Origin: Candidatus Heimdallarchaeota archaeon
GTDB taxonomy: Archaea; Asgardarchaeota; Heimdallarchaeia; Hodarchaeales; Hodarchaeaceae
Length of the DNA stretch: 64,000 bases
Direction of reading: 5' to 3'
Assembly: GCA_048881705.1 (NCBI GenBank)
Contig: JBHLSH010000003.1
Location: forward strand, 37,890-101,889
Shown here: positions 15,991 to 51,846 of the stretch, piece by piece
Position numbering within the stretch: the stretch's first letter is position 1
Layout: each line of letters opens with the position of its first letter
Program-made: the position numbers and the translations under genes
The notes under the pieces: generated by a model
The model's input: only the letters and a program-made list of their open reading frames with translations
What the model was told of the DNA's origin: nothing
Databases searched by the model: none

Positions 15991-18186
15991 TTAGACGAAA
16001 GACAACCTGTCAACGTCCTCTTGCATCGCTTCTATCTTCTCTCTTGCCGTTACCTTGCCTGCCTTGCGCGTTTCTAAAATCTTTTTGTAAGCAAGGTCAA
16101 AGTCTTCCTGTGACACACTATATCCAGCAAAATCTTGATTATCAGGATTTAAGCTAGGTAAATGTCTTTGTATCGAATTTAAAACGGCCTCATGACAAAG
16201 ACTTGCCAGCTCCGCCCCAGAAAATTTCTCCGCTCTTTTCGAATAGTCCACCAGGTCCACATCCTGATCGAGAGGAACCCCCTGTGTATGGATTTTCAAA
16301 ATCTCAAGACGAGCTGTCTCGTCAGGTAACCCGATTCTTATTATCTTATCGAAGCGGCCGGGACGAAGCAAGGCGGGGTCGATCATGTCCGGACGATTGG
16401 TTGCTGCCACGACAACAACTCCCTTAAGTTCCTCTAATCCGTCCAATTCGGTAAGAAATTGGCTGATCATTCTTTCCGTTACACCTGAATCAAATGATTT
16501 TCCCCGAATGGGGGCAATGGAGTCAATTTCGTCAAAGAAGATGATAGATGGGGCTGCCTGCCGAGCTTTACGAAAAACCTCACGGATTCCTTTTTCACTT
16601 TCACCTACCCACTTTGAAAGCAGTTCTGGTCCTTTAACCGAAATAAAATTCGCTTGTGTTTCATGAGCTACAGCTTTCGCTAGAAGAGTCTTTCCCGTTC
16701 CGGGAGGGCCAAATAGCAAAATCCCTTTTGGTTGCTTTGCCCCCATATGCGAGAAGAATTTTGGGTGTTTTAATGGCAGCTCAATACTGTTTTTTATCTC
16801 TTCTTTTTCCTCAATAAGGCCTCCCACATCATCCCAAGAAATATTAGGTACTTCAACAAAGACTTCGCGTAATGCGGAAGGTTGGATCCCGAGTAAAGCT
16901 TCGTTGAAGTCATCCTTGGTCACTCGAATTTCGTTTAGAATATGCGCTGGTATTGTATCTTCTTCCAAGTTTAATTTCGGAATTATTCGGCGAAGAGCGA
17001 TCATTGCTGATTCTTTGACAAGCTGCTCAAGATCGGCCCCAACAAAACCATGACTTACGGCTGCTATACGTTCTAGATCAACATCATCTCCGAGTGGCAT
17101 TCCCCGGGTATGAATAAGCAAGATTTCTTCGCGCCCAAATTTATCAGGAATACGAATCTCTATTTCTCGATCAAAGCGTCCACCGCGTCGGAGGGCTGGA
17201 TCAAGGGCATTTATGCGATTGGTTGCACCGATGACAACCACGTCTCCTCGGTCACTCAGTCCGTCCATGTTTGATAATAGCTGGGCAACCACACGCCTCT
17301 CGACTTCCCCAGTAGTTTCCGAACGCTTGTTAGCGATTGAGTCGATCTCATCTAGAAAAATGATACTCGGCGCGTTCTCTTTGGCCTCATCGAACATTTT
17401 TCGGATTCTTTCTTCCGATTCACCGTAAAATTTGCTCATGAACTCTGGTCCAGAAACAGAAATGAAATATGAATCAGTTTCAGTTGCGACTGCCTTAGCT
17501 AGTAGCGTTTTTCCAGTTCCTGGAGGACCATGCAGCAAAACACCCCGTGGAGGAGTAATTCCCAAGCGTTTAAAGAGTTCTGGATGACGCATTGGGAGTT
17601 CAATCATCTCGCGAACCATATTGATTTCTTTCCCCAGCCCACCGATATCCTCGTACCGAATCCTCTGAAAAGTATCTTGTTTAACATCTTTCACGGGAGT
17701 TAGTGATATAGCTATACGCGTTGTTGGCTGCATAATTACTGCATCCGCGTTAGGATTGATTTTAGAAACGACCAGAATTATTCGCTGGTTGTAGACGGGA
17801 ATTTCGATAAAGTCTCCCTTGGTCAGAACCCGCCCCAATAATAGGTGTTGAAGATGTGATTCCCCGCCTTGAATTCTAAGGTTCTGTACAGGAGCAAATT
17901 CGATACGTACAGCATCTTTGGCTTCAACTGGCTGAATACTAACCGTATCATCAATGCCAACCCCAGCGTTGCGTCGAGTCGCTCCATCGATTTTTATAAT
18001 CCCTGTATTTCGATCTTGTGGGTACCCTGGCATATATTTCGCAGCAGTACGTCTTTTTCCAATAATTTGTATCGCATCGCCAGCTGAAATGTCTAGCTGG
18101 TCCGCTATGTTTGGATCAATGCGAATTATTCCCCTTCCGACATCTTTGGCGCTTGCCTCTCTTACTCGGCATTCCGTGTGTTCCAT
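15991..18186 (-). CDS. cdc48: CDC48/VAT AAA+ ATPase, canonical (both rings intact); start likely ATG 18186 rather than 18213
   Basis: N-domain DVGRGIIRID. D1 GPPGTGKT/IIFLDEID/SKFYGESE. D2 GPPGTGKT/IIFFDEID/SKWVGESE. GGTGAG upstream of 18186. Confidence 0.96.
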   Translation of the reverse strand: MEHTECRVREASAKDVGRGIIRIDPNIADQLDISAGDAIQIIGKRRTAAKYMPGYPQDRNTGIIKIDGATRRNAGVGIDDTVSIQPVEAKDAVRIEFAPVQNLRIQGGESHLQHLLLGRVLTKGDFIEIPVYNQRIILVVSKINPNADAVIMQPTTRIAISLTPVKDVKQDTFQRIRYEDIGGLGKEINMVREMIELPMRHPELFKRLGITPPRGVLLHGPPGTGKTLLAKAVATETDSYFISVSGPEFMSKFYGESEERIRKMFDEAKENAPSIIFLDEIDSIANKRSETTGEVERRVVAQLLSNMDGLSDRGDVVVIGATNRINALDPALRRGGRFDREIEIRIPDKFGREEILLIHTRGMPLGDDVDLERIAAVSHGFVGADLEQLVKESAMIALRRIIPKLNLEEDTIPAHILNEIRVTKDDFNEALLGIQPSALREVFVEVPNISWDDVGGLIEEKEEIKNSIELPLKHPKFFSHMGAKQPKGILLFGPPGTGKTLLAKAVAHETQANFISVKGPELLSKWVGESEKGIREVFRKARQAAPSIIFFDEIDSIAPIRGKSFDSGVTERMISQFLTELDGLEELKGVVVVAATNRPDMIDPALLRPGRFDKIIRIGLPDETARLEILKIHTQGVPLDQDVDLVDYSKRAEKFSGAELASLCHEAVLNSIQRHLPSLNPDNQDFAGYSVSQEDFDLAYKKILETRKAGKVTAREKIEAMQEDVDRLSFV

Positions 18187-43228: not shown

Positions 43229-44497
43229 ATGCCTGAACAACAAAGAGTATTTATCGCAGGCGGTAATACAACCCCCTTTGATTATCCACTTAATCTCCAA
43301 ATCGAGGAAATGACTGCCAATGTTGTCCGCCAATTATACAAAGATGTTCCTGAATTTCACCTCAGGGATGTAAGAGATCACGGAATGGTGGTATATTCCC
43401 ATTTTTCTGTTCATTTTAGTCACCAATTGACTGCATACTGGATTCTGCACGATCATCTGGGTCTGGTCGGTGTTCCACACTTTAGAATAGACAACGGAGG
43501 AAACACCGGTGGATCTGCCCTTTATGCCGCTTATGCCCTGATAAGAAGTGGGCTCGCAAACGTGGTACCAGTGATTGGTTACGAACTGATGGCCTCTGTC
43601 TCCCAATCCAAAGGGAGCGAATTCATTGCCATAGCGTCTGATACCAGATATGAAGCCATGTTAGGGGCAAATTATACCAATTACTATGCAGGTTTAGCCC
43701 GGGTCTTTATGGAAAACCACAACCTTTCTGAAGAGGAATTTGCCGAGATTGCGGTAAAGAATAAGAATAATGCTATGGCCACAGGTGAAAAAACGCAACA
43801 TTTTCGTAGTATAGGCCGAAAAGTTACAGTAAACGATGTAATGGACTCTCGACTCATAGCTTATCCTCTGAAAAAACTAGATTGCTGTTTTATGTCCGAA
43901 GGGGCGGCTGTAGTTTTGCTTTGTAATGAAAAATTTGCGAAGCAATATAGCCCAGATCATTACGTCGAAATCACTGGTGTTGGCTTATCTTCGTGTACCA
44001 TCCGTGCAGGAGATCGATATAATTTCCCTGGTTGGACCCAACGTTATGGTGAGGGATATCCTGGGCTTGGAGAATTCGGAGCCTGTCGAAGAGCCGCGGA
44101 AGTGGCTTTCGATATGGCTAAAATCCCATGGAAAAACTCTTACAAACATTTAGATGTCGCTGAAGTCCATGATGCCTTCTCAACATCCGAAGCCCAAATC
44201 TATAATGCGCTAGGTTGGTGTGAGTCAATGTCAGTCAAAGAGTTCATTCGTGATCGTCTTCCCATGATGGAAGGTGAAATTCCTACAAATCCTGGAGGGG
44301 GTTTGATTGGATACGGCCATCCTGTGGGAGCCACGGGGTTAATGAGCGCCATAGAATGCTATTACCAGTTGACAGGTCGGATACCCAAGGAGCACAAGTC
44401 TACGGATAACGAAGTTAAAGATGCAGAAGTAGGACTCGTTAATAGTCACGCTGGGACTGGAACCAGCATTTCCAATTTTGTACTACAAAGAGCTTGA
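43229..44497 (+). CDS. Thiolase-fold protein (SCP-x type) lacking the catalytic Cys
   Basis: DNGGNTGGSA where active thiolases have NACASG; DCCFMSEGAA, EVHDAF, NPGGGLIGYGHPVGATG. Confidence 0.88.
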   Translation: MPEQQRVFIAGGNTTPFDYPLNLQIEEMTANVVRQLYKDVPEFHLRDVRDHGMVVYSHFSVHFSHQLTAYWILHDHLGLVGVPHFRIDNGGNTGGSALYAAYALIRSGLANVVPVIGYELMASVSQSKGSEFIAIASDTRYEAMLGANYTNYYAGLARVFMENHNLSEEEFAEIAVKNKNNAMATGEKTQHFRSIGRKVTVNDVMDSRLIAYPLKKLDCCFMSEGAAVVLLCNEKFAKQYSPDHYVEITGVGLSSCTIRAGDRYNFPGWTQRYGEGYPGLGEFGACRRAAEVAFDMAKIPWKNSYKHLDVAEVHDAFSTSEAQIYNALGWCESMSVKEFIRDRLPMMEGEIPTNPGGGLIGYGHPVGATGLMSAIECYYQLTGRIPKEHKSTDNEVKDAEVGLVNSHAGTGTSISNFVLQRA

Positions 44498-45167
44498 GGT
44501 GATAATTATGGCAGATCATTTACATCCAACTCCATTCAATAAGGACTTTCGGTGGGATGCTTGGAAAGAGATTTCTACATTAGTCCCCGAGAAAGGATGG
44601 ACATGGCAAAATGTCCGAACAGGTACCGCTGGAGGGACGGAGTGGATCGAACAGCAAATATACTTTGACATGTTGTACACCTTCCGCCTAGGCGCTTTGA
44701 GTCCCTATGCCAAGGGTTTACTGGAGGGGAAACTCCTCGGGACCAAGTGTCCGAATTGCGGCGATATCACATTCCCCCCAAGAGTAAATTGTTGGAATCT
44801 TGATTGTGATCTAATAAAAATGGATTGGGTCGAAATGCCAAGAACTGGGATCCTTCATGCATGGACCATTTGTGGTTTCGCTGCCAAAAGCGCCTTGAAG
44901 AAGTTACCATTTGTTCTAGCCTATGTTCTGATTGGAGATAGCAGAACAGCAATCGCAAATATACTACGTGTCGAGGAACCTTGGCATACAGAGACCGAAA
45001 TGCCAGTAGTAGTCAAAATGGCGCCGAAAGAGGAAAGAGTGGGAAATCTTATCGATTTTTGGTTTGAACCGGCTCCAGATTGGAGACCTAGTCCAATGAC
45101 ACCAGAAAAAGAACGCATCAGACAGCTGTGTGAACCAGTTTATGCGTGGGTCGCTCAGATGAAATGA
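44478..45167 (+). CDS. DUF35 Zn-ribbon/OB-fold protein (thiolase partner)
   Basis: GKLLGTKCPNCG...PPRVNC, WVEMPRTG, PFVLAYV; coupled to the thiolase gene. Confidence 0.88.
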   Translation: MYYKELEVIIMADHLHPTPFNKDFRWDAWKEISTLVPEKGWTWQNVRTGTAGGTEWIEQQIYFDMLYTFRLGALSPYAKGLLEGKLLGTKCPNCGDITFPPRVNCWNLDCDLIKMDWVEMPRTGILHAWTICGFAAKSALKKLPFVLAYVLIGDSRTAIANILRVEEPWHTETEMPVVVKMAPKEERVGNLIDFWFEPAPDWRPSPMTPEKERIRQLCEPVYAWVAQMK

Positions 45168-45563: not shown

Positions 45564-47921
45564 TCATACGAATGAAGGAGATTGTTTTGACAGAAGTTCT
45601 TTTTTCTTGTTTCCCAGGACCCTTGCTTCAAATTCATCATAATAAGCTTCGAGATTGGAGTCTACGCTTGGAAAGCAATTTTTTAGGGCATTCTCAAAAT
45701 CCTCAAACATGATAACACGCTGGCTGAAATCCTTTCTCAGTGCGATCATCACAGCTTCACGACACAAATTTTCCAGATCGGCCCCGGAGTATCCAGCTGT
45801 TCTTTCTGCAAGTGAATCAAGCAGGTGATCCCGGTCACCTTGAAATGGAATTTTCTTTGAATGAATATCTAGAATTTCTCGACGTCCTGATTGATCTGGG
45901 GAGGGAATAAGAATTAATTTATCTAACCTCCCTGGCCTAAGCAGTGCCAAATCAAGGGCGCCTGGTCTATTTGTGGCGCCTATAACAAAGATATCCTGTG
46001 TATCTTCTATCCCATCCAAGAGAGTTAGGAGCTGATTTACCGTCGCATCAATCTCTCGGCCGCCATCTGACTCGTCCCCTCCTCGTCGGGGAACCATAGC
46101 ATCAATTTCATCAAAAAAAAGAATACAGGGCGCCAATTTTTTTGCCTTACTAAACAGCTCTCGGACAATTCGGGCAGATTCTCCAAACCAAACAGATAAC
46201 AGTTCCGGACCCTTGATTGAGATGAATGATGCATCTAGTTCCGTGGCAATAGCCCTCGCCAGTAGCGTTTTTCCGTTACCAGGTGGCCCATAGAGAAGGA
46301 TTCCTCTAGGAGGGGTGACACCCATCTCCTTCAAAACCTGTGGTTGATGAAATTGCCATTCAAGCTGTTCTTGCAGCAGATGTTTTATTTCAGTAAGCCC
46401 TCCGATGTCGGCCCAATGAACATTGGGTTTTAAAATGCGGGAGTGCACCGTACGAAGTGCTGAGGGTTCTACAGTTCGAAAAGCTTCTTCAAAATCCTCA
46501 CGGGCTACTTTAATTTCCAGCATCACAGATGGCGGAATCGAGGTTCCCCAGAGATTAATTAATTCCGCATATCGAGCAACACAGCGCATGCAGGCTTCTT
46601 TAACAAGAGCAGCAATGTCCGTTCCTACATATCCAGTCATTCGATTTATGTACGACCTCAGATAATCTTCGGTAACATCATTTTCGAGCGGGACTGTTCG
46701 TAAATGAATATTTAGGATCTCTTCACGCTCCTGCTCCGATGGAACATTACATTCCACTTCGATATCGAAGCGACCTGGGCGTCGTACAATAGGATCTATA
46801 TCATCGGCTGACTTGCAGGCTCCTAGAACAAATGCGTGGGTTCCCTTGAGAGTGTCCAGCCCTAAGGCAAACTGAATTGAAAATCTACGAACATATTCTG
46901 GTAAATTTAAATCCGGTGCTGGCGTGAGAGTATCCAAATCATCCAATATTAAAAGAGCTGGACTTTTCTGAGCTACTTTTTGTACATCAGCAAAGAGAGT
47001 CCGGATATTTTTCTCAGTAGGGCCCACCCCAGCAAAGAGGTTCGCTGGAATTCGAAATATTTCTGCCCCAGATTGGGCCATTTCAGCTGCTAACGTATCC
47101 AATAGTAAGGTTTTGCCCACTCCGGATCCCCCAACAAGAAGAATTCCATGCGGGGGATCTATATTTATTGCACTAAAGACCTCAGGTCTTCTGATGGGCG
47201 TGATAACCAACTTCCTTAGACGTCGGATTACAGACTTGAGGCCTCCAATACTCTCCCACGAAATGCTTTCCAATTCTTTAGAACTTGGTATAAAGGTTTT
47301 ACTAAGCTGAAATTTGGTGGTTTTAGAACTAACTAAAACTATTCCGTCTGGACTTGTCGCTTTAATTAATAAGGTTTCTTTTTTGAATGTATAACCAGTT
47401 AGATTGATTTGGAGCCCCGATGAGACGGGTTGGTCTTTTAACTGGTTTCTCAATTGTACCAGAAGTAAATGGCGTTCCGCATCATTAAGTTTCGATGGGT
47501 CCTGTCCAACGAGAGTTACGTGAACTTTTTTGGCAATTGCAGGTTTCAATATCGTATCAACTTCAACGAGGTCCCCAAGGGAAAGGCCCAAGGATTGTCG
47601 TACCTCACCATCTAGTTTCGCCGTAAAAATGCCCTCACGGTCTATTTCCGAATACCCCTGAAACCGACGACCTCGTGGCCTCGGGAGATAATCTTCAGAA
47701 GTTTTCTTTTCTTTCTCCTCGCTTTTTATGGATGTTGTTGATTGTCCAAACATAGGAGGAGCATCTGGTTTAACAATGACCCCGAATCGCTTATCCTTGT
47801 GAATAACCTCAATAACGGTTTCATCTTCCACGCCAAGAGTTAAAAGTGCTTCTGGTGGCAAGCGAATTATCCTTTTGCCGAAATCCTCTGCCTGGGGTTC
47901 TGCCAGTTCACAAGCAACCAT
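45564..47921 (-). CDS. CDC48-like AAA+ ATPase, degenerate D1 / intact D2
   Basis: CDC48-type N-domain. D1 GGSGVGKT and LILDDLD. D2 GPPGNGKT, LFFDEID, LLRPGRLD. Confidence 0.92.
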   Translation of the reverse strand: MVACELAEPQAEDFGKRIIRLPPEALLTLGVEDETVIEVIHKDKRFGVIVKPDAPPMFGQSTTSIKSEEKEKKTSEDYLPRPRGRRFQGYSEIDREGIFTAKLDGEVRQSLGLSLGDLVEVDTILKPAIAKKVHVTLVGQDPSKLNDAERHLLLVQLRNQLKDQPVSSGLQINLTGYTFKKETLLIKATSPDGIVLVSSKTTKFQLSKTFIPSSKELESISWESIGGLKSVIRRLRKLVITPIRRPEVFSAINIDPPHGILLVGGSGVGKTLLLDTLAAEMAQSGAEIFRIPANLFAGVGPTEKNIRTLFADVQKVAQKSPALLILDDLDTLTPAPDLNLPEYVRRFSIQFALGLDTLKGTHAFVLGACKSADDIDPIVRRPGRFDIEVECNVPSEQEREEILNIHLRTVPLENDVTEDYLRSYINRMTGYVGTDIAALVKEACMRCVARYAELINLWGTSIPPSVMLEIKVAREDFEEAFRTVEPSALRTVHSRILKPNVHWADIGGLTEIKHLLQEQLEWQFHQPQVLKEMGVTPPRGILLYGPPGNGKTLLARAIATELDASFISIKGPELLSVWFGESARIVRELFSKAKKLAPCILFFDEIDAMVPRRGGDESDGGREIDATVNQLLTLLDGIEDTQDIFVIGATNRPGALDLALLRPGRLDKLILIPSPDQSGRREILDIHSKKIPFQGDRDHLLDSLAERTAGYSGADLENLCREAVMIALRKDFSQRVIMFEDFENALKNCFPSVDSNLEAYYDEFEARVLGNKKKELLSKQSPSFV

Positions 47922-47938
47922 TTGAATACCCCTATTTC

Positions 47939-50209
47939 CTACACGAATGTCCTTTCTTCGTTTGAATAATCCGAAATTCGGTGTTTTTTCATCGCTTCTA
48001 CCTCTACCTCAAAATACTTGACTATATTCTCGTTAATACTTGGCCGACACTTATCCATTGCAATGTTAAAGTCTTCAAAAGAAAGCGATCGCGATGTAAA
48101 ATCACGGCGCAATCCAGCAAATGCGGCCTCTCTACAAAGGTTTTCAATATCAGCTCCAGTGAAGTTTTCAGTCGATCTGGCAAGTTCTTTTAGGTCCACT
48201 GTCTCATCCAGCTCCATATGACGAGTGTGGACTTCAAAGATCTTTAATCGGTTTTCCATATCTGGAATAGGGACATAGATTAACCTGTCCAAGCGACCAG
48301 GACGGAGTAAAGCTGGATCAATGGCGTTAGGTCGATTTGTGGCACCGATTACATATACTCCAGTTAATTTTTCCATTCCATCCAAAGAGGCAAGAAGTTG
48401 GTTGATAATCCTGTCCCTTTCTCGGGAGGCATTGGTAAATCCTCCTCCTCGTTTGCCGGCAAGTGCGTCAAGTTCATCAAAGAAGATTATACACGGAGCC
48501 AACTGTCGTGCTCTTTGGAATAATTCTCTCACCATTCTTGCCGATTCCGAGAACCATTTAGACAATAGCTCGGGTCCACGGACCACCAAAAAATTTGCTT
48601 GGATTTCACTGGCCAATGCCTTGGCAATTAGAGTTTTACCTGTTCCCGGAGGGCCGTATAAGAGAGCACCTCGAGGCAATCGAATGTTCATTTCGTGAAA
48701 AACCTCTGGACTGCGAATAGGCCATTCAACCATCTCCCGTAGTGACTGCTTGACATCTTCCAGCCCTCCTACATCATTCCAAGAGACCAATGGAATCGAT
48801 GTTGTAATCTCTCGTGTTGCAGACGGTTTTACTTCCGTTAAAGCTGTAAAAAGGTCCTCTTGAGATAAGTGAATTTCAATGCCATGCGATTTGGGATTGT
48901 TGTCACTCTCTTCGCCTGAAACCTGATTGATTTCAGGATCTAGTAAGTTTTGTCTTTCTAAAGCGTGCATCCCCGCCATCTTTATAAGGAATTCTAGGTC
49001 TGCGGGAGTGTACCCGCCCGTATTTTTTGCTATGTCTTCTAGGTCAAGTTCCTTGGTAGGAATACCTCTAACGTGGGTTTTCAGGATTTCCAACCGATCA
49101 CGATAATTCGGGATGGGTACCGCGATTTCGATCTCAAATCTACCTGGTACTCTTAAGGCGGGATGAACGCTATCAGCATCAGTTGTTGTGGCAATAACAA
49201 TAACCTTTCGGCCACGGATGATTTTGTCCAAGTTCTGAATCAGGCTAGTTGTGGTACGTCGTTCAAGATCTGATAGGTGCCGACTAGGTGCCGGCGCAAG
49301 AGCCTCGATTTGATCGATAACGATGACTGCGGGTTCATAGTTTATAATGTGTTGAAAATACTTGTTCATATCCTTCTCCGTAGTCCACCATCCTCTAATC
49401 ATCTCAGTTGCCATGATGAAAAATCGAGTTACTCCAGATTCACAAGAGAGAGCCCGACTTAAATGACTTTTTCCTACCCCCAATGGACCTGTCAGTAAAA
49501 TTCCCTGTGCAGGTTGGATATTAAGCATTTCAAAAACCTCAGGATATCTTAGAGGTAGTTCAACGAGATTTCTTAGCCGTGAAATTAACTCAGAGTGTCC
49601 TCCTACTTCATCCCACATAACAAAGCGATCTAGTTCATCTTCTACTAGTTCCTTGGGTATTTCATTTGAAATGCGAACATCGGTTTCCGGGACAATTCTC
49701 ACTATCCCTGAAGGAGTTGTGGAAAGAATCGCGACTTTAAGATCTCTTCCCCCGAGTAGCCGCCGTAGCTCAATTGTTTGCCCTCTAATCACTGGTCGAT
49801 CTAGTAAATATTCAATGAATACTTTATCCTTGTCTTCCATACTATAAGTGCTTATTAGTACCTTTTTGGCTTCAGGACAAGCAGTCTTATCTAAGAAAAC
49901 CTTCTGGCCAATTCCTACACCGAGATTTGCTCGAAGGAATCCATTTAGGTGCAGAATGAGATCGCCCGTCTGTCGGATTGATCGTTGAGGTGCAGGGTAG
50001 AGAGGTACTTCCGGTAACTGGGAGGGGACATTAATTTCCTCCAAAGGTTTCAGCAGGATCCCTACTTTCCTGTCCCCACTGACGACTTCTACAACCTCTC
50101 CTTCCTTGATATCAAAATCGTCAAAGCGTTTTTGGGAAATTCGGCCTATATTTTTGGCATAATCATCTTGGAAACCATCAGCCACCGTTGCAATAACCAC
50201 TAATGTCAC
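47939..50209 (-). CDS. CDC48-like AAA+ ATPase, degenerate D1 / intact D2
   Basis: CDC48-type N-domain. D1 GPLGVGKS, IVIDQIE, ALRVPGRF. D2 GPPGTGKT, IFFDELD, LLRPGRLD. Confidence 0.92.
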   Translation of the reverse strand: MTLVVIATVADGFQDDYAKNIGRISQKRFDDFDIKEGEVVEVVSGDRKVGILLKPLEEINVPSQLPEVPLYPAPQRSIRQTGDLILHLNGFLRANLGVGIGQKVFLDKTACPEAKKVLISTYSMEDKDKVFIEYLLDRPVIRGQTIELRRLLGGRDLKVAILSTTPSGIVRIVPETDVRISNEIPKELVEDELDRFVMWDEVGGHSELISRLRNLVELPLRYPEVFEMLNIQPAQGILLTGPLGVGKSHLSRALSCESGVTRFFIMATEMIRGWWTTEKDMNKYFQHIINYEPAVIVIDQIEALAPAPSRHLSDLERRTTTSLIQNLDKIIRGRKVIVIATTTDADSVHPALRVPGRFEIEIAVPIPNYRDRLEILKTHVRGIPTKELDLEDIAKNTGGYTPADLEFLIKMAGMHALERQNLLDPEINQVSGEESDNNPKSHGIEIHLSQEDLFTALTEVKPSATREITTSIPLVSWNDVGGLEDVKQSLREMVEWPIRSPEVFHEMNIRLPRGALLYGPPGTGKTLIAKALASEIQANFLVVRGPELLSKWFSESARMVRELFQRARQLAPCIIFFDELDALAGKRGGGFTNASRERDRIINQLLASLDGMEKLTGVYVIGATNRPNAIDPALLRPGRLDRLIYVPIPDMENRLKIFEVHTRHMELDETVDLKELARSTENFTGADIENLCREAAFAGLRRDFTSRSLSFEDFNIAMDKCRPSINENIVKYFEVEVEAMKKHRISDYSNEERTFV

Positions 50210-50490
50210 CTAACAGATAGGATTCTTTATTCTTGCGTCTCAGTATAAGTTGTTGTTGGGGAAAGATCAGCAATATATTAACGTACGCCGACTATATTCA
50301 AAGTGAAATTAAGTTTTTCGAAATAAGGAGGAATCTGGGTTATTTAGCAGAATAAAAAATCCGCAGCGGATCCTTTACGTTTCCACAAGGTTTTGGATTT
50401 TTTTTTCGTTCCTGGCAACATAATCCTTTGTTAGCTCCGACTCCAAAGCAAAACTCTTTTTTCGATTTAAGATGGACTTGAAAGTCCATA

Positions 50491-51846
50491 TCAGTCTTGA
50501 GAACTGATCCTGGCCACAAAAATAAGAGTTCCGACAATTAAACTCATGATAACACCCCCAAGAAAGATTAACAACTCGATTCTTGGATTCGGATTTGACC
50601 AGGAGACATAGGCGATAAGTAGATTCAACCCTGAAAGAGATCCAAAGAGAGCTGTCAATAAATTAAGGCGGCGGGTCACTCTTTTCTCTTGGTCCAAGGC
50701 CAACAAGTTCATTTTACCTCGAATATACGATGTCGCGCCTTCAACACTTCTTTCGACACTTCTCGCAAAATCCAACCAGGAGTTAACTAGCTCCAAATTA
50801 AACTCAGGCATTAGTTTTTGAACCAGAGGATCAGATAACAGAGGGACTACGGGGCTCAAATGACCTTGCATGGAGGAGAGAGTAGGCTTAATTTTAAGAA
50901 ATTGTTCTTGAATGTCCTGAATGTTATCCAAGAGCTGACTAAGCCTTGAAACAGTTAAATGAGGATTGATAACCCTCATTTCGCTAGTAATAATTGATAA
51001 ATCATTTAGCATATTCACTAGAGTAGGTTTAATTGTCTCCCATTGTATTATGAGCCCTTTCTGCATAATAAGGGTTTCATTGATTTTTTGAAACGAGAGG
51101 GCTGGGATGTGCTCTAGGCCTGTGTTCACGATGCATCTTTCATCATCAGAAGTACTCTCATAATCTGGTGCAAGAATATCTATAACCATGTTCTCTTCTG
51201 TCTCGAAACCCAAATAATATGAGGCATAATAGGAGATCTTCTCATTTCCCGCGTTGGAATTTACCGCGAAGAACTCTGGGGGATCCATTTGAAAATTAGT
51301 ACTTAGCCACTCAAGGACATCACGAAACAATTCCCTTAATTGAGAGAAAACCGTCGCCCCAGCTCTTGACGGAAATCCAGCTAAACCGAAAACCAAGGGA
51401 TCTCGTAAAAATGAAACATTCATATCTAAAGGCCAAAAATTGTGCCTAATTGTGCAGATCCAATTTATGTGGTGTGTAAAACTGATTTCAATCGTCCACC
51501 CGTGCTTCCACTCGTAAAGTAAGCCAAGCTGCTTAGGGGGGACTTTCTCAAGCCTGAACGCCGACCGTACAATTGCCTCCGTAATTGCCGTTCTAAGGGG
51601 AACTACAATTTGAAATCCTGCCATAAAAACGCTCCCCTCATTCCAATGTGTTAACATGGATTCTAAGCCATGCTCAACAAAGATACCACAGGATGGACAA
51701 CAACTATAGCCAGTGTGAACACGCTGGGGACAGGCATCTACGGAACCCAACGAAGTGGCAACCTCACATCTCATACAACAATGTAAAAAGTCAGGATCAT
51801 TGTTGAGTCTTAATCCATGATTCCGAGACAAATCATCAAGTATCAT
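50491..51846 (-). CDS. Hypothetical membrane protein with CorA-like C-terminus (long helix + two TMs) and Cys-rich N-terminus
   Basis: RVTRRLNLLTALFGSLSGLN then a second TM; N-terminal HCCMRC...CPQRVHTGYSCCPSC. Confidence 0.65.
   Translation of the reverse strand: MILDDLSRNHGLRLNNDPDFLHCCMRCEVATSLGSVDACPQRVHTGYSCCPSCGIFVEHGLESMLTHWNEGSVFMAGFQIVVPLRTAITEAIVRSAFRLEKVPPKQLGLLYEWKHGWTIEISFTHHINWICTIRHNFWPLDMNVSFLRDPLVFGLAGFPSRAGATVFSQLRELFRDVLEWLSTNFQMDPPEFFAVNSNAGNEKISYYASYYLGFETEENMVIDILAPDYESTSDDERCIVNTGLEHIPALSFQKINETLIMQKGLIIQWETIKPTLVNMLNDLSIITSEMRVINPHLTVSRLSQLLDNIQDIQEQFLKIKPTLSSMQGHLSPVVPLLSDPLVQKLMPEFNLELVNSWLDFARSVERSVEGATSYIRGKMNLLALDQEKRVTRRLNLLTALFGSLSGLNLLIAYVSWSNPNPRIELLIFLGGVIMSLIVGTLIFVARISSQD

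Follow-up and report, generated by a model that had tools for sequence, protein, structure and literature searches.

Double-ring AAA+ motors and a Hodarchaeales gene pair

VAT forms homohexamers in which both rings are active, p97 is a homohexamer in which the D-E of the D1 Walker B motif is retained, and AFG2A/AFG2B (SPATA5/SPATA5L1, the 55LCC complex) is a motor of the Cdc48 family in which two paralogs make up a heteromer. Pex1 and Pex6 are sister type II AAA+ paralogs whose D1 domains lack the hydrolysis motifs, with the Walker A lysine kept, and whose D2 domains act as the motor (PMC9265785). In NSF, one of the two rings binds nucleotide without hydrolysing it and serves for assembly (PMC5070193). 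The genes described here, A and B, lie in a 64,000-nucleotide stretch of Candidatus Heimdallarchaeota DNA, hereafter the window. The most probable reading, at roughly 0.55, is that they form a two-gene operon of specialised Cdc48/VAT paralogs, which arose in the Hodarchaeales lineage when a paralog whose D1 was already dead was duplicated in tandem, with a mixed ring as the working model.

47939..50200, minus strand: gene A, a divergent Cdc48/VAT paralog of 753 aa with an N-domain, a predicted dead D1 and an active D2
45564..47921, minus strand: gene B, a second divergent Cdc48/VAT paralog of 785 aa with the same predicted layout
47922..47938, minus strand: A-B spacer of 17 nt with an AGGGGT ribosome-binding site, indicative of translational coupling
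50352..50373, minus strand: short hairpin and T6 after the upstream gene, read by eye

Both open reading frames and the gap with AGGGGT, which is located 7 nt before the ATG of B, are present as originally predicted, as is every motif quoted there. The start of A had been placed at 50209, but the GTG at 50200 is the most likely one, given the 753-aa database record, the M-[VI]-I with which the orthologs begin and the AGGTGA upstream; the GTG at 50209 is an alternative that gives 756 aa. The hairpin and T6 suggest that A-B may have a promoter of its own in the 290-nt spacer. The canonical CDC48 at 15991-18186(-) is also where it had been reported, three more canonical paralogs are found elsewhere in the genome, making four in all, and 20S proteasome genes are present as well.

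Like VAT, A and B show the Cdc48/VAT architecture of an N-domain (double-psi barrel and beta-clam) ahead of two AAA modules with AAA_lid_3, with a full D2 motor and an aromatic residue near the C-terminus. Pfam returns AAA twice and AAA_lid_3 twice in both proteins, CDC48_2 above the cut-off in A and a weak CDC48_N in A and B. Unlike VAT, they are an obligate gene pair with a predicted non-hydrolysing D1, altered D1 pore loops and an insertion in the N-domain, and their TIGR01243 scores (639.3 bits for A and 586.4 for B, versus 966.5 for the canonical copy) fall below the NCBIfam curated cut-off of 802.65 bits. The AlphaFold2 models are folded over N-D1-D2, with mean pLDDT values of 83.3 (A) and 84.9 (B), and in a Foldseek search B matches p97/CDC48A over its full length (E 2e-65).

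With Pex1/Pex6 the pair shares the sister type II paralogs, a D1 with the Walker A lysine, the D2 motor and, as proposed below, the alternating arrangement. In contrast, Pex1 and Pex6 have N1 and N2 domains and about 1000-1300 aa, whereas A and B have a single N-domain; the aromatic D1 pore loop of A, both D1 arginine fingers of B and the lack of a conserved membrane-anchor gene are further differences. The original prediction had considered kinship with Pex1/Pex6 or SPATA5/SPATA5L1, which the comparisons do not bear out, as VAT and p97 lead the ranking of solved structures and the order is the same for A, B and the canonical protein (VAT, p97, AFG2A, Afg2, NVL, AFG2B). VAT is the best sequence match among solved structures (569 and 601 bits), Pex1/6 are absent from the best 60 solved sequences for either protein, and no PEX-type N-domain is found among the Pfam matches listed. 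The Pex1/Pex6 resemblance is, as judged from sequence, convergent. The likeness to AFG2A/AFG2B consists in the paralog pair; a specific affinity was rejected, both ranking below VAT and p97 for A, B and the canonical protein with similar relative scores. NSF is homomeric and has D2 as its inactive ring, whereas that of A/B is predicted to be D1.

Predicted D1 and D2 rings, N-domains and tails

49304..49321, minus strand: Walker B motif of A D1, Gln in place of the catalytic Glu (D-Q in 13/14 A orthologs)
46932..46949, minus strand: Walker B motif of B D1, D-D here and D-N in most orthologs (catalytic Glu absent in 13/13)
49376..49396, minus strand: pore loop of A D1, [KR]-G-W-W (RGWW here; GWW invariant in 14/14 A orthologs)
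47013..47036, minus strand: pore loop of B D1, F-A-G-V-G without the Lys and aromatic pair
49133..49159, minus strand: arginine-finger segment of A D1, second Arg of RR..R replaced by Val (lost in 14/14 A orthologs)
46764..46790, minus strand: arginine-finger loop of B D1, RRPGR, retained (both fingers kept in 12/13 B orthologs)
48287..48655, minus strand: A D2 catalytic core with Walker A, KWF pore loop, Walker B DE, sensor-1 and RPGRLD
45921..46289, minus strand: B D2 catalytic core with Walker A, VWF pore loop, Walker B DE, sensor-1 and RPGRLD
49961..50041, minus strand: A N-domain insertion of ~25 aa between the halves of the double-psi barrel, disordered
47634..47762, minus strand: B N-domain insertion in the same loop, longer (~35-55 aa), charged and disordered
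47942..47953, minus strand: A C-terminal tail, HbYX-like, with penultimate Phe (F/Y in 14/14 A sequences)
45567..45578, minus strand: B C-terminal tail, HbYX-like, with penultimate Phe (Y/F in 13/13 B sequences)

Motif conservation was followed in 14 A, 13 B and 20 canonical sequences. The D1 Walker B motif is D-E in all 20 canonical copies, whereas the catalytic glutamate is missing in 13/14 A and 13/13 B orthologs, so that its predicted degeneration in both proteins proves to be family-wide. The D1 Walker A motif is intact in all A and B orthologs and the sensor-1 asparagine is lost in the pair, which for A was confirmed in the window. The predicted loss of one D1 arginine finger likewise holds for A, where the valine replaces what we take to be the position of R359 in p97, and B retains both fingers. 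The D1 pore loops had been described as replaced, and both are indeed altered, but the invariant [KR]-G-W-W of A is not simply a degenerate loop. Measured against a competent D1 of Cdc48/VAT (D-E, sensor-1 Asn, two arginine fingers, aromatic pore loop), both proteins fall short. Pex1/Pex6-type D1 domains have the Walker A lysine but are devoid of Walker B, arginine fingers and aromatic pore loops; here both proteins lack the Walker B glutamate and have the Walker A lysine, yet A has its GWW loop and B its two fingers. The D1 pore loop of p97, as in B, has no aromatic residue, whereas the D1 Walker B glutamate of p97 is absent from A and B.

Within each family D1 is 57.6% (A) and 55.9% (B) identical versus 64.5% and 61.4% for D2, while only 35-36% of D1 and 44-48% of D2 is identical to the canonical domains; of the 10 positions at which conservation differs between A, B and the canonical copies, 7 fall in D1. 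The dN/dS values between genomes G000 and G001 are 0.045 (A), 0.076 (B) and 0.045 (canonical). These data support the view that the D1 changes are conserved family signatures under purifying selection. D2 is canonical in 27/27 A and B orthologs, and not only Walker A/B and RPGR, as predicted, but also sensor-1 is intact in both proteins. The A/B D2 domains have WF, APC, a loop after Walker B that is two residues longer and RPGRLD in common with the D2 of eukaryotic Cdc48, including p97.

The N-domain insertion occupies the same double-psi barrel loop in A and B, in agreement with the original prediction, and pLDDT is below 50 over most of residues 56-79 of A and over 57-89 of B. HbYX-type proteasome activators end in a hydrophobic-Tyr-any tripeptide. 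In the A and B tails the penultimate aromatic mostly follows E, S, T or G and not a hydrophobic residue, so that they depart from the classical HbYX motif.

Co-occurrence and descent of the pair

In 11 of the 13 A-bearing loci read, B lies directly downstream of A in the same order, with gaps of 17, 17, 0, 0, 0, 3, 8, 1, -1, 0 and -1 nt; one of the remaining two has a gene between A and B, and in the other only the N-domain of B is left. Another two A/B cluster pairs lie on shared contigs, and B without A was found in none of the 83 genomes of the class. The co-occurrence of the pair thus holds, and supports a conserved, translationally coupled unit. In the single-contig genome with the shortened gene (G016), A is intact and only the first ~196 residues of B are left, while the closest A relative has a full B; an intact A beside a truncated B counts against a mixed ring. 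The pair is missing in 15/22 species of the genus, including genomes that are 93-99% complete, and is therefore dispensable, which counts against a mixed ring as well.

A and B are each monophyletic (support 100) and form sister clades, supported at 96 when full-length sequences are used and at 100/98 in the careful D2-only tree; within the archaeal radiation neither has a closer relative than the other. The inner branching of the two clades is similar, and the families diverge congruently. The next relative of A+B is X, a singleton dead-D1 paralog family (G026, G030, G034). As X presumably forms a homohexamer, loss of D1 activity alone need not mean that a partner exists.

A mixed-ring model and its alternatives

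A and B likely assemble into a mixed ring, and we infer the steps that follow except where motif or conservation results are given. The two proteins would be made together and form one mixed double ring, most simply an alternating A3B3. Its D1 ring, with Walker A intact, would bind ATP but could not split it, because the sensor-1 Asn is lost and the Walker B glutamate is replaced by Gln in A and by Asn or Asp in B; we propose that the bound but unsplit ATP glues D1 into a static platform for assembly and a collar at the entry. B would give a complete arginine-finger pair to the ATP-trapping pocket of A and A only one finger to that of B, which would result in two different ring interfaces. In the D1 pore three conserved GWW loops of A would alternate with three small loops of B. 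The D2 ring, with all catalytic motifs and WF pore loops, would be the motor that threads and unfolds substrates, which the two different N-domains with their disordered insertions may choose directly or through adaptors, and the penultimate aromatic of both tails might attach the ring to the 20S proteasome or to some other partner.

A complex model of D1(A) and D1(B) with ATP scored 0.66 versus 0.00 for the best control, a mark reached by 58/80 solved complexes and 2/110 mismatched pairs, counts that are no more than a rough guide for this pair. At least 85% of contacts are common to the runs, the partner pLDDT is at least 83, and the B arginine-finger loop (377-386) is placed on the P-loop of A (240-241). 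Since solved p97/VAT rings are alike, the pass may simply echo those rings and indicates likeness, not proof. Any two Cdc48 paralogs might pass such a model.

Separate A6 and B6 homohexamers, co-transcribed for the same pathway with different N-domain specificities, are a possible but distinctly less probable arrangement. It would agree with X being a dead-D1 singleton, with the genome that has an intact A beside a truncated B, with the several homomeric Cdc48 paralogs common in archaea (four canonical ones here) and with the complete ring-forming elements of each AlphaFold2 model; the kept fingers of B and the lost finger of A are also compatible with it. Strict co-occurrence and tight translational coupling across roughly 50% sequence divergence argue against it, as do the complementary, family-specific asymmetry of arginine fingers and D1 pore loops, the concentration of differential changes in D1, the assembly ring, and the A-B complex model, although the latter may echo solved rings. 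It is improbable that A and/or B instead enter rings of the canonical Cdc48 paralogs or, in place of a fixed A3B3, serve as regulatory pseudo-subunits whose stoichiometry varies: the strict mutual linkage points to self-sufficiency, and the pair is missing from most congeners that keep canonical copies, even if four canonical paralogs coexist with it and the D2 domains resemble theirs at the identities given above. Relaxed drift of redundant duplicates heading for loss is hardly credible and was rejected, for although the patchy distribution within the genus and the one truncated B would fit, the dN/dS values of 0.045-0.076, the same D1 substitutions fixed across 27 orthologs and a D1 nearly as conserved as D2 within each family contradict it.

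The original prediction left open whether the pair was an independent invention or a relative of the eukaryotic complexes; the data favour the former and lend no support to kinship, the heterohexamer itself being something that we infer. The pair is probably not the ancestor of Pex1/Pex6 and similar human motors but their parallel in archaea. That it is the archaeal orthologue or direct ancestor of Pex1/Pex6, AFG2A/AFG2B or the whole eukaryotic Cdc48 family is very unlikely, and hardly better are the odds of the A/B branch being nearer than any other archaeal one to the D2 domain of the eukaryotic Cdc48 family, which would mean that the eukaryotic radiation, heteromeric members included, began from a Hodarchaeales-type paralog and not from a canonical VAT-like copy. 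The host is of the Hodarchaeales type, the D2 signature is common to A/B and eukaryotic Cdc48, the D2 cores of A and B, unlike the canonical one, score at least as high with p97 as with VAT (202 vs 201 for A, 199 vs 192 for B, 205 vs 244 for canonical), and a clade uniting A+B with plant Cdc48 D2 survives the AU test (p 0.19), the eukaryotic sampling of the D2 tree and test being two plant Cdc48 sequences. However, eukaryotic D2 falls elsewhere in the careful D2 tree, the constrained tree being 6 lnL units worse, X lacks the D2 signature, the full-length structure ranking equals that of the canonical protein with Pex1/6 outside the best 60, and A and B have a single N-domain and only 750-790 aa. 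The D2 signature also recurs in Aenigmarchaeota and other, unrelated CDC48s, and is therefore homoplastic.

The WF pore loop of D2, originally regarded as unusual, is what eukaryotic p97/Cdc48 normally has in D2, and other archaea have it too; among the search matches it is found in 11 of 216 other CDC48-like proteins, nearly all of which are prokaryotic.

Conservation of the A-B pair and of its ATPase motifs

The divergent Cdc48/VAT paralogs A and B, both with an N-domain followed by two ATPase ring domains (D1 and D2), are a lineage-restricted, co-inherited pair in which D1 is dead and D2 is active.

47939-50209, minus strand: longest reading frame of A
45564-47921, minus strand: long open reading frame of B

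The more probable start codon of A is the GTG at 50200, which gives a protein of 753 residues, since the database record has the same length, the orthologs open with M-[VI]-I and an AGGTGA is located just 5′ of this codon. The 17-nt spacer between the genes contains AGGGGT seven bases 5′ of the ATG of B. Pfam identifies two AAA domains, each with an AAA_lid_3, in both proteins, along with CDC48_2 in A, and CDC48_N matches the two proteins weakly. With the NCBIfam CDC48 model A and B reach 639 and 586 bits, below the cut-off of 802.65, compared to 966 for the canonical Cdc48 at 15991-18186. In the AF2 models, built from an alignment of 49 rows (mean pLDDT 83.3 for A and 84.9 for B), the N-domain, D1 and D2 are all folded, and the N-domain insertion is a disordered loop between the halves of the double-psi barrel (56-79 in A, 57-89 in B). 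A Foldseek search matches the B model to p97 and plant CDC48A over its whole length.

When the N-D1 part of A was compared with 5.8 billion proteins in a word-indexed search, only about 16 clusters of 44-100% identity were found, below which the score falls sharply to generic Cdc48 at 34% identity. The close orthologs of A and B carry the source names Hodarchaeales, Hodarchaeota or Heimdallarchaeota. P0125, a near-identical B ortholog of the closest relative, is labelled "Thorarchaeota archaeon" at NCBI while the names Hodarchaeota or Hodarchaeales are used for other members of its genus, and the label is probably a stale one of a MAG. Seven of the 22 species of the genus carry A and six carry a full B; several of the congeners that lack the pair are 93-99% complete, and neither gene was found in the rest of the 83 genomes of the class. 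The co-occurrence of the two genes in relatives, proposed as a check in the original prediction, is clearly seen: a full B follows directly 3′ of A in unchanged order in 11 of the 13 A-bearing loci read, with gaps of 17, 17, 0, 0, 0, 3, 8, 1, -1, 0 and -1 nt, and B without A was not found in the 83 genomes or the database clusters. Two further A/B cluster pairs share contigs. A and B are separated by a metallophosphatase gene of opposite orientation on one metagenomic contig, and in the 3.16-Mb single-contig genome G016 A is intact and B is reduced to its first ~196 residues.

L025:6478-9514, minus strand: truncated B of G016, cut to the N-domain (273-aa ORF)

Since the closest relative of the G016 A has a full B, the truncation is either recent or an assembly fault. 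About 0.9 kb beyond the truncated gene, G016 encodes a protein of 441 residues with a RING finger (zf-RING_2, Prok-RING_1) at its C-terminus.

The motifs quoted in the original prediction are all present in A and B, and their conservation was tallied in 14 orthologs of A, 13 of B and, for comparison, 20 canonical archaeal Cdc48s, all 20 of which have D-E in the D1 Walker B.

Table. Motifs in the A and B orthologs (motif; A; B)
D1 Walker A; intact 14/14; intact 13/13
D1 Walker B; D-Q 13/14, D-E 1/14; catalytic Glu 0/13 (Asn 12, Asp 1)
D1 sensor-1 Asn; absent from canonical position 14/14; absent 12/13
D1 Arg fingers; second Arg of RR..R replaced 14/14; RR..R retained 12/13
D1 pore loop; [KR]-G-W-W 14/14; F-x-G-[VI]-G 13/13
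D2 motifs; all canonical; all canonical
D2 pore loop; K-W-F; [VM]-W-F
D2 Arg-finger motif; RPGRL (RPGRI in 1); RPGRL
Penultimate residue; Phe or Tyr 14/14; Tyr or Phe 13/13

Both D1 domains have thus kept the P-loop and lost the catalytic Glu and sensor-1, and both D2 domains are complete in sequence. The identity of the D1 domains to canonical D1 is only 35-36%, but within each family D1 is conserved almost like D2 (57.6 vs 64.5% identity in A, 55.9 vs 61.4% in B), the dN/dS values between the genome of the window and its closest relative are low (A, 0.045; B, 0.076; canonical copy, 0.045), and of the ten positions whose conservation differs between A, B and the canonical proteins, seven lie in D1. 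The D1 changes are therefore fixed characters of the two families, and unconserved drift, named beforehand as an outcome that would speak against a specialised pair, is contradicted by these values and by the ortholog-wide conservation.

Origin of the pair and its relation to eukaryotic motors

The genome of the window encodes four canonical Cdc48 paralogs, located on contigs C32, C27 and C1 (loci L002-L004) and at window 15991-18186, which are 54-60% identical to the window's canonical copy, compared to 38-39% for A and B. In the C1 protein and its relative in G067 a Gly/Pro-rich stretch is inserted into the Nc part of the N-domain, and ~6.6 kb separate the C32 copy from one 20S proteasome gene. 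The full-length tree shows A and B as monophyletic groups (support 100 each) and as sisters (96), and the same arrangement is found in a careful tree of D2 alone (100/98), the domain that is canonical in both proteins and has short stems. The next relative of A+B in the D2 tree (97/90) is X, a singleton paralog from another family of the class that is found in G026 and in the following two genomes.

L030:1206-3572, plus strand: X of G030
L031:7020-9326, minus strand: X of G034

The D1 of X is likewise dead, with D-N in Walker B and a pore loop without an aromatic residue. The D2 of X resembles that of VAT, and its N-domain has an insertion at the same loop as in A and B, though a shorter one. 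Branching inside A broadly resembles that inside B. The simplest history starts with a D1-dead paralog, followed by its tandem duplication and a divergence of the two copies that chiefly affected D1 and the N-domain. Congeners also have Cdc48-like open frames of 1123-1241 aa (G003:C36, G008:C9, G017:C136); these are probably intein-bearing Cdc48 genes, as a 1214-aa database relative (P0081) has intein and LAGLIDADG Pfam domains.

The suggested kinship with Pex1/Pex6 or SPATA5/SPATA5L1 found no backing. The ranking of solved structures is identical for A, B and the canonical copy (VAT, p97, AFG2A (SPATA5), Afg2/Drg1, NVL, AFG2B (SPATA5L1)), the best 60 solved-structure matches of A and B include neither Pex1 nor Pex6, and Pex1/Pex6 have two N-domains (PMC9265785), whereas A and B have one each.

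Table. D2 core scores (protein; p97-D2; VAT-D2)
Canonical copy; 205; 244
A; 202; 201
B; 199; 192

The D2 domains of A and B do share with eukaryotic Cdc48 the WF loop, an APC N-terminal to Walker B, a loop after Walker B that is two residues longer, and RPGRLD, a signature that X does not have. In the D2 trees the eukaryotes are represented by two plant Cdc48 gene models, trimmed of internal duplications; with this sampling the eukaryotic D2 has no resolved place in the backbone of the careful tree, and placing A+B with it costs 6.0 lnL units and is not rejected (p-AU 0.19). A quick D2 tree missed a better topology, the constrained tree being 10.95 lnL units higher, and the careful tree alone was therefore relied upon. 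Of 216 other CDC48-like proteins sampled, 11 have the WF pore loop, and the full signature (WF pore loop, APC, RPGRL) was seen in six CDC48s (P0148, P0213, P0227-P0229 and P0240), three of them labelled Aenigm(at)archaeota, which group neither with A/B nor with plant Cdc48. As the trees give no support and the signature recurs in other archaeal CDC48s, it was rejected as proof of eukaryotic kinship; it is read as homoplastic, and with the sequences sampled a kinship of A and B with the eukaryotic families is not supported.

A possible mixed ring of A and B

The D1 domains of A and B would form a nucleotide-binding, non-hydrolysing assembly ring and the D2 domains the threading motor, the same division as in Pex1/Pex6 (PMC9265785) and, with the rings reversed, in NSF (PMC5070193). 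At one D1 interface the A pocket, a D-Q trap, would be closed by the two Arg fingers of B, and at the other the B pocket would face the single Arg finger of A; the asymmetry between the proteins fits a mixed ring, such as A3B3, with these two kinds of interface. A model of D1(A) and D1(B) with ATP scored 0.66, compared to 0.00 for the best control. Among reference cases, 58 of 80 solved complexes attained this level, as did 2 of 110 mismatched pairs, counts that are only roughly valid here. At least 85% of the contacts agree between runs, the partner pLDDT is at least 83, and B 377-386 is placed against A 240-241, which corresponds to the first of the two interfaces. The model indicates likeness and not binding, as the solved p97 and VAT rings look alike and close cousins of true partners also pass.

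A mixed ring is given a probability of roughly 0.55. It has to be weighed against co-expressed but separate homohexamers, A6 and B6, from which it is set apart by indirect arguments. The singleton occurrence of X, the retention of A without a full B in G016 and the dispensability of the pair in most congeners speak against a mixed ring; the complementary D1 asymmetry points the other way, and separate rings are considered less likely. Of the specialised alternating-subunit unfoldase originally envisaged, the conserved pair with fixed D1 changes stands and the relation to eukaryotic complexes is not supported, and a mixed-ring unfoldase of A and B probably evolved in parallel to Pex1/Pex6.

The tails may in addition serve in docking to the proteasome, as archaeal Cdc48 does (PMC5070193), given that a penultimate aromatic residue is present in 27/27 A/B tails and the genome has 20S genes; the suggestion is tentative since the residue preceding the aromatic is not hydrophobic. 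The (S/T)-F-V tail was also considered as a PDZ-type ligand and rejected, only the penultimate aromatic being conserved across orthologs.

Hetero-oligomeric double-ring motors of the Cdc48 family (Pex1/Pex6, AFG2A/AFG2B) are considered to be inventions of eukaryotes. A broad survey (PMC5070193) reports a single Cdc48 type as the general rule in prokaryotes, and full-text literature searches gave no description of an archaeal pair like A/B. The dead-D1/active-D2 paralogs A and B are conserved and inherited together in the archaeal lineage closest to eukaryotes. If the mixed ring is true, the step from a homomeric to a heteromeric unfoldase was taken independently in Asgard archaea, and A/B would provide a small prokaryotic system for studying the reason behind the silencing of one ring and the division of labour between two kinds of subunit. 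An unidentified archaeal Cdc48-like ATPase has been proposed in a 2026 preprint to disassemble Heimdall SNARE complexes (10.64898/2026.10.19.760048), for which A/B is one possible candidate.

Gene neighbourhood

No neighbour gene conserved with A-B was found across the loci read, so the unit consists of these two genes alone. The gene 5′ of A encodes pyruvate kinase in most loci; in the genome of the window and its closest relative its place is taken by an unrelated gene for a Cys-rich membrane protein.

50491-51846, minus strand: 451-aa gene upstream of A; no Pfam match, Cys-rich N-terminus, two C-terminal hydrophobic helices

This gene was rejected as a membrane partner of A/B due to its restriction to the two genomes, the pyruvate kinase elsewhere, and a hairpin with a T-run 3′ of it. 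The N-terminal Cys residues of its product have a zinc-ribbon-like spacing, and the long helical stretch followed by the C-terminal helices recalls a CorA-like tail. A thiolase-like gene and a DUF35 (zf-ChsH2/OB) gene at 43229-45167 on the plus strand converge on the end of B, and such a pair is also found near A-B in several congeners. In one Hodarchaeales MAG, a gene for a 665-aa GTPase of the Arf / Gtr1-RagA family (L052:9797-11794, plus strand) is located directly 3′ of A-B.
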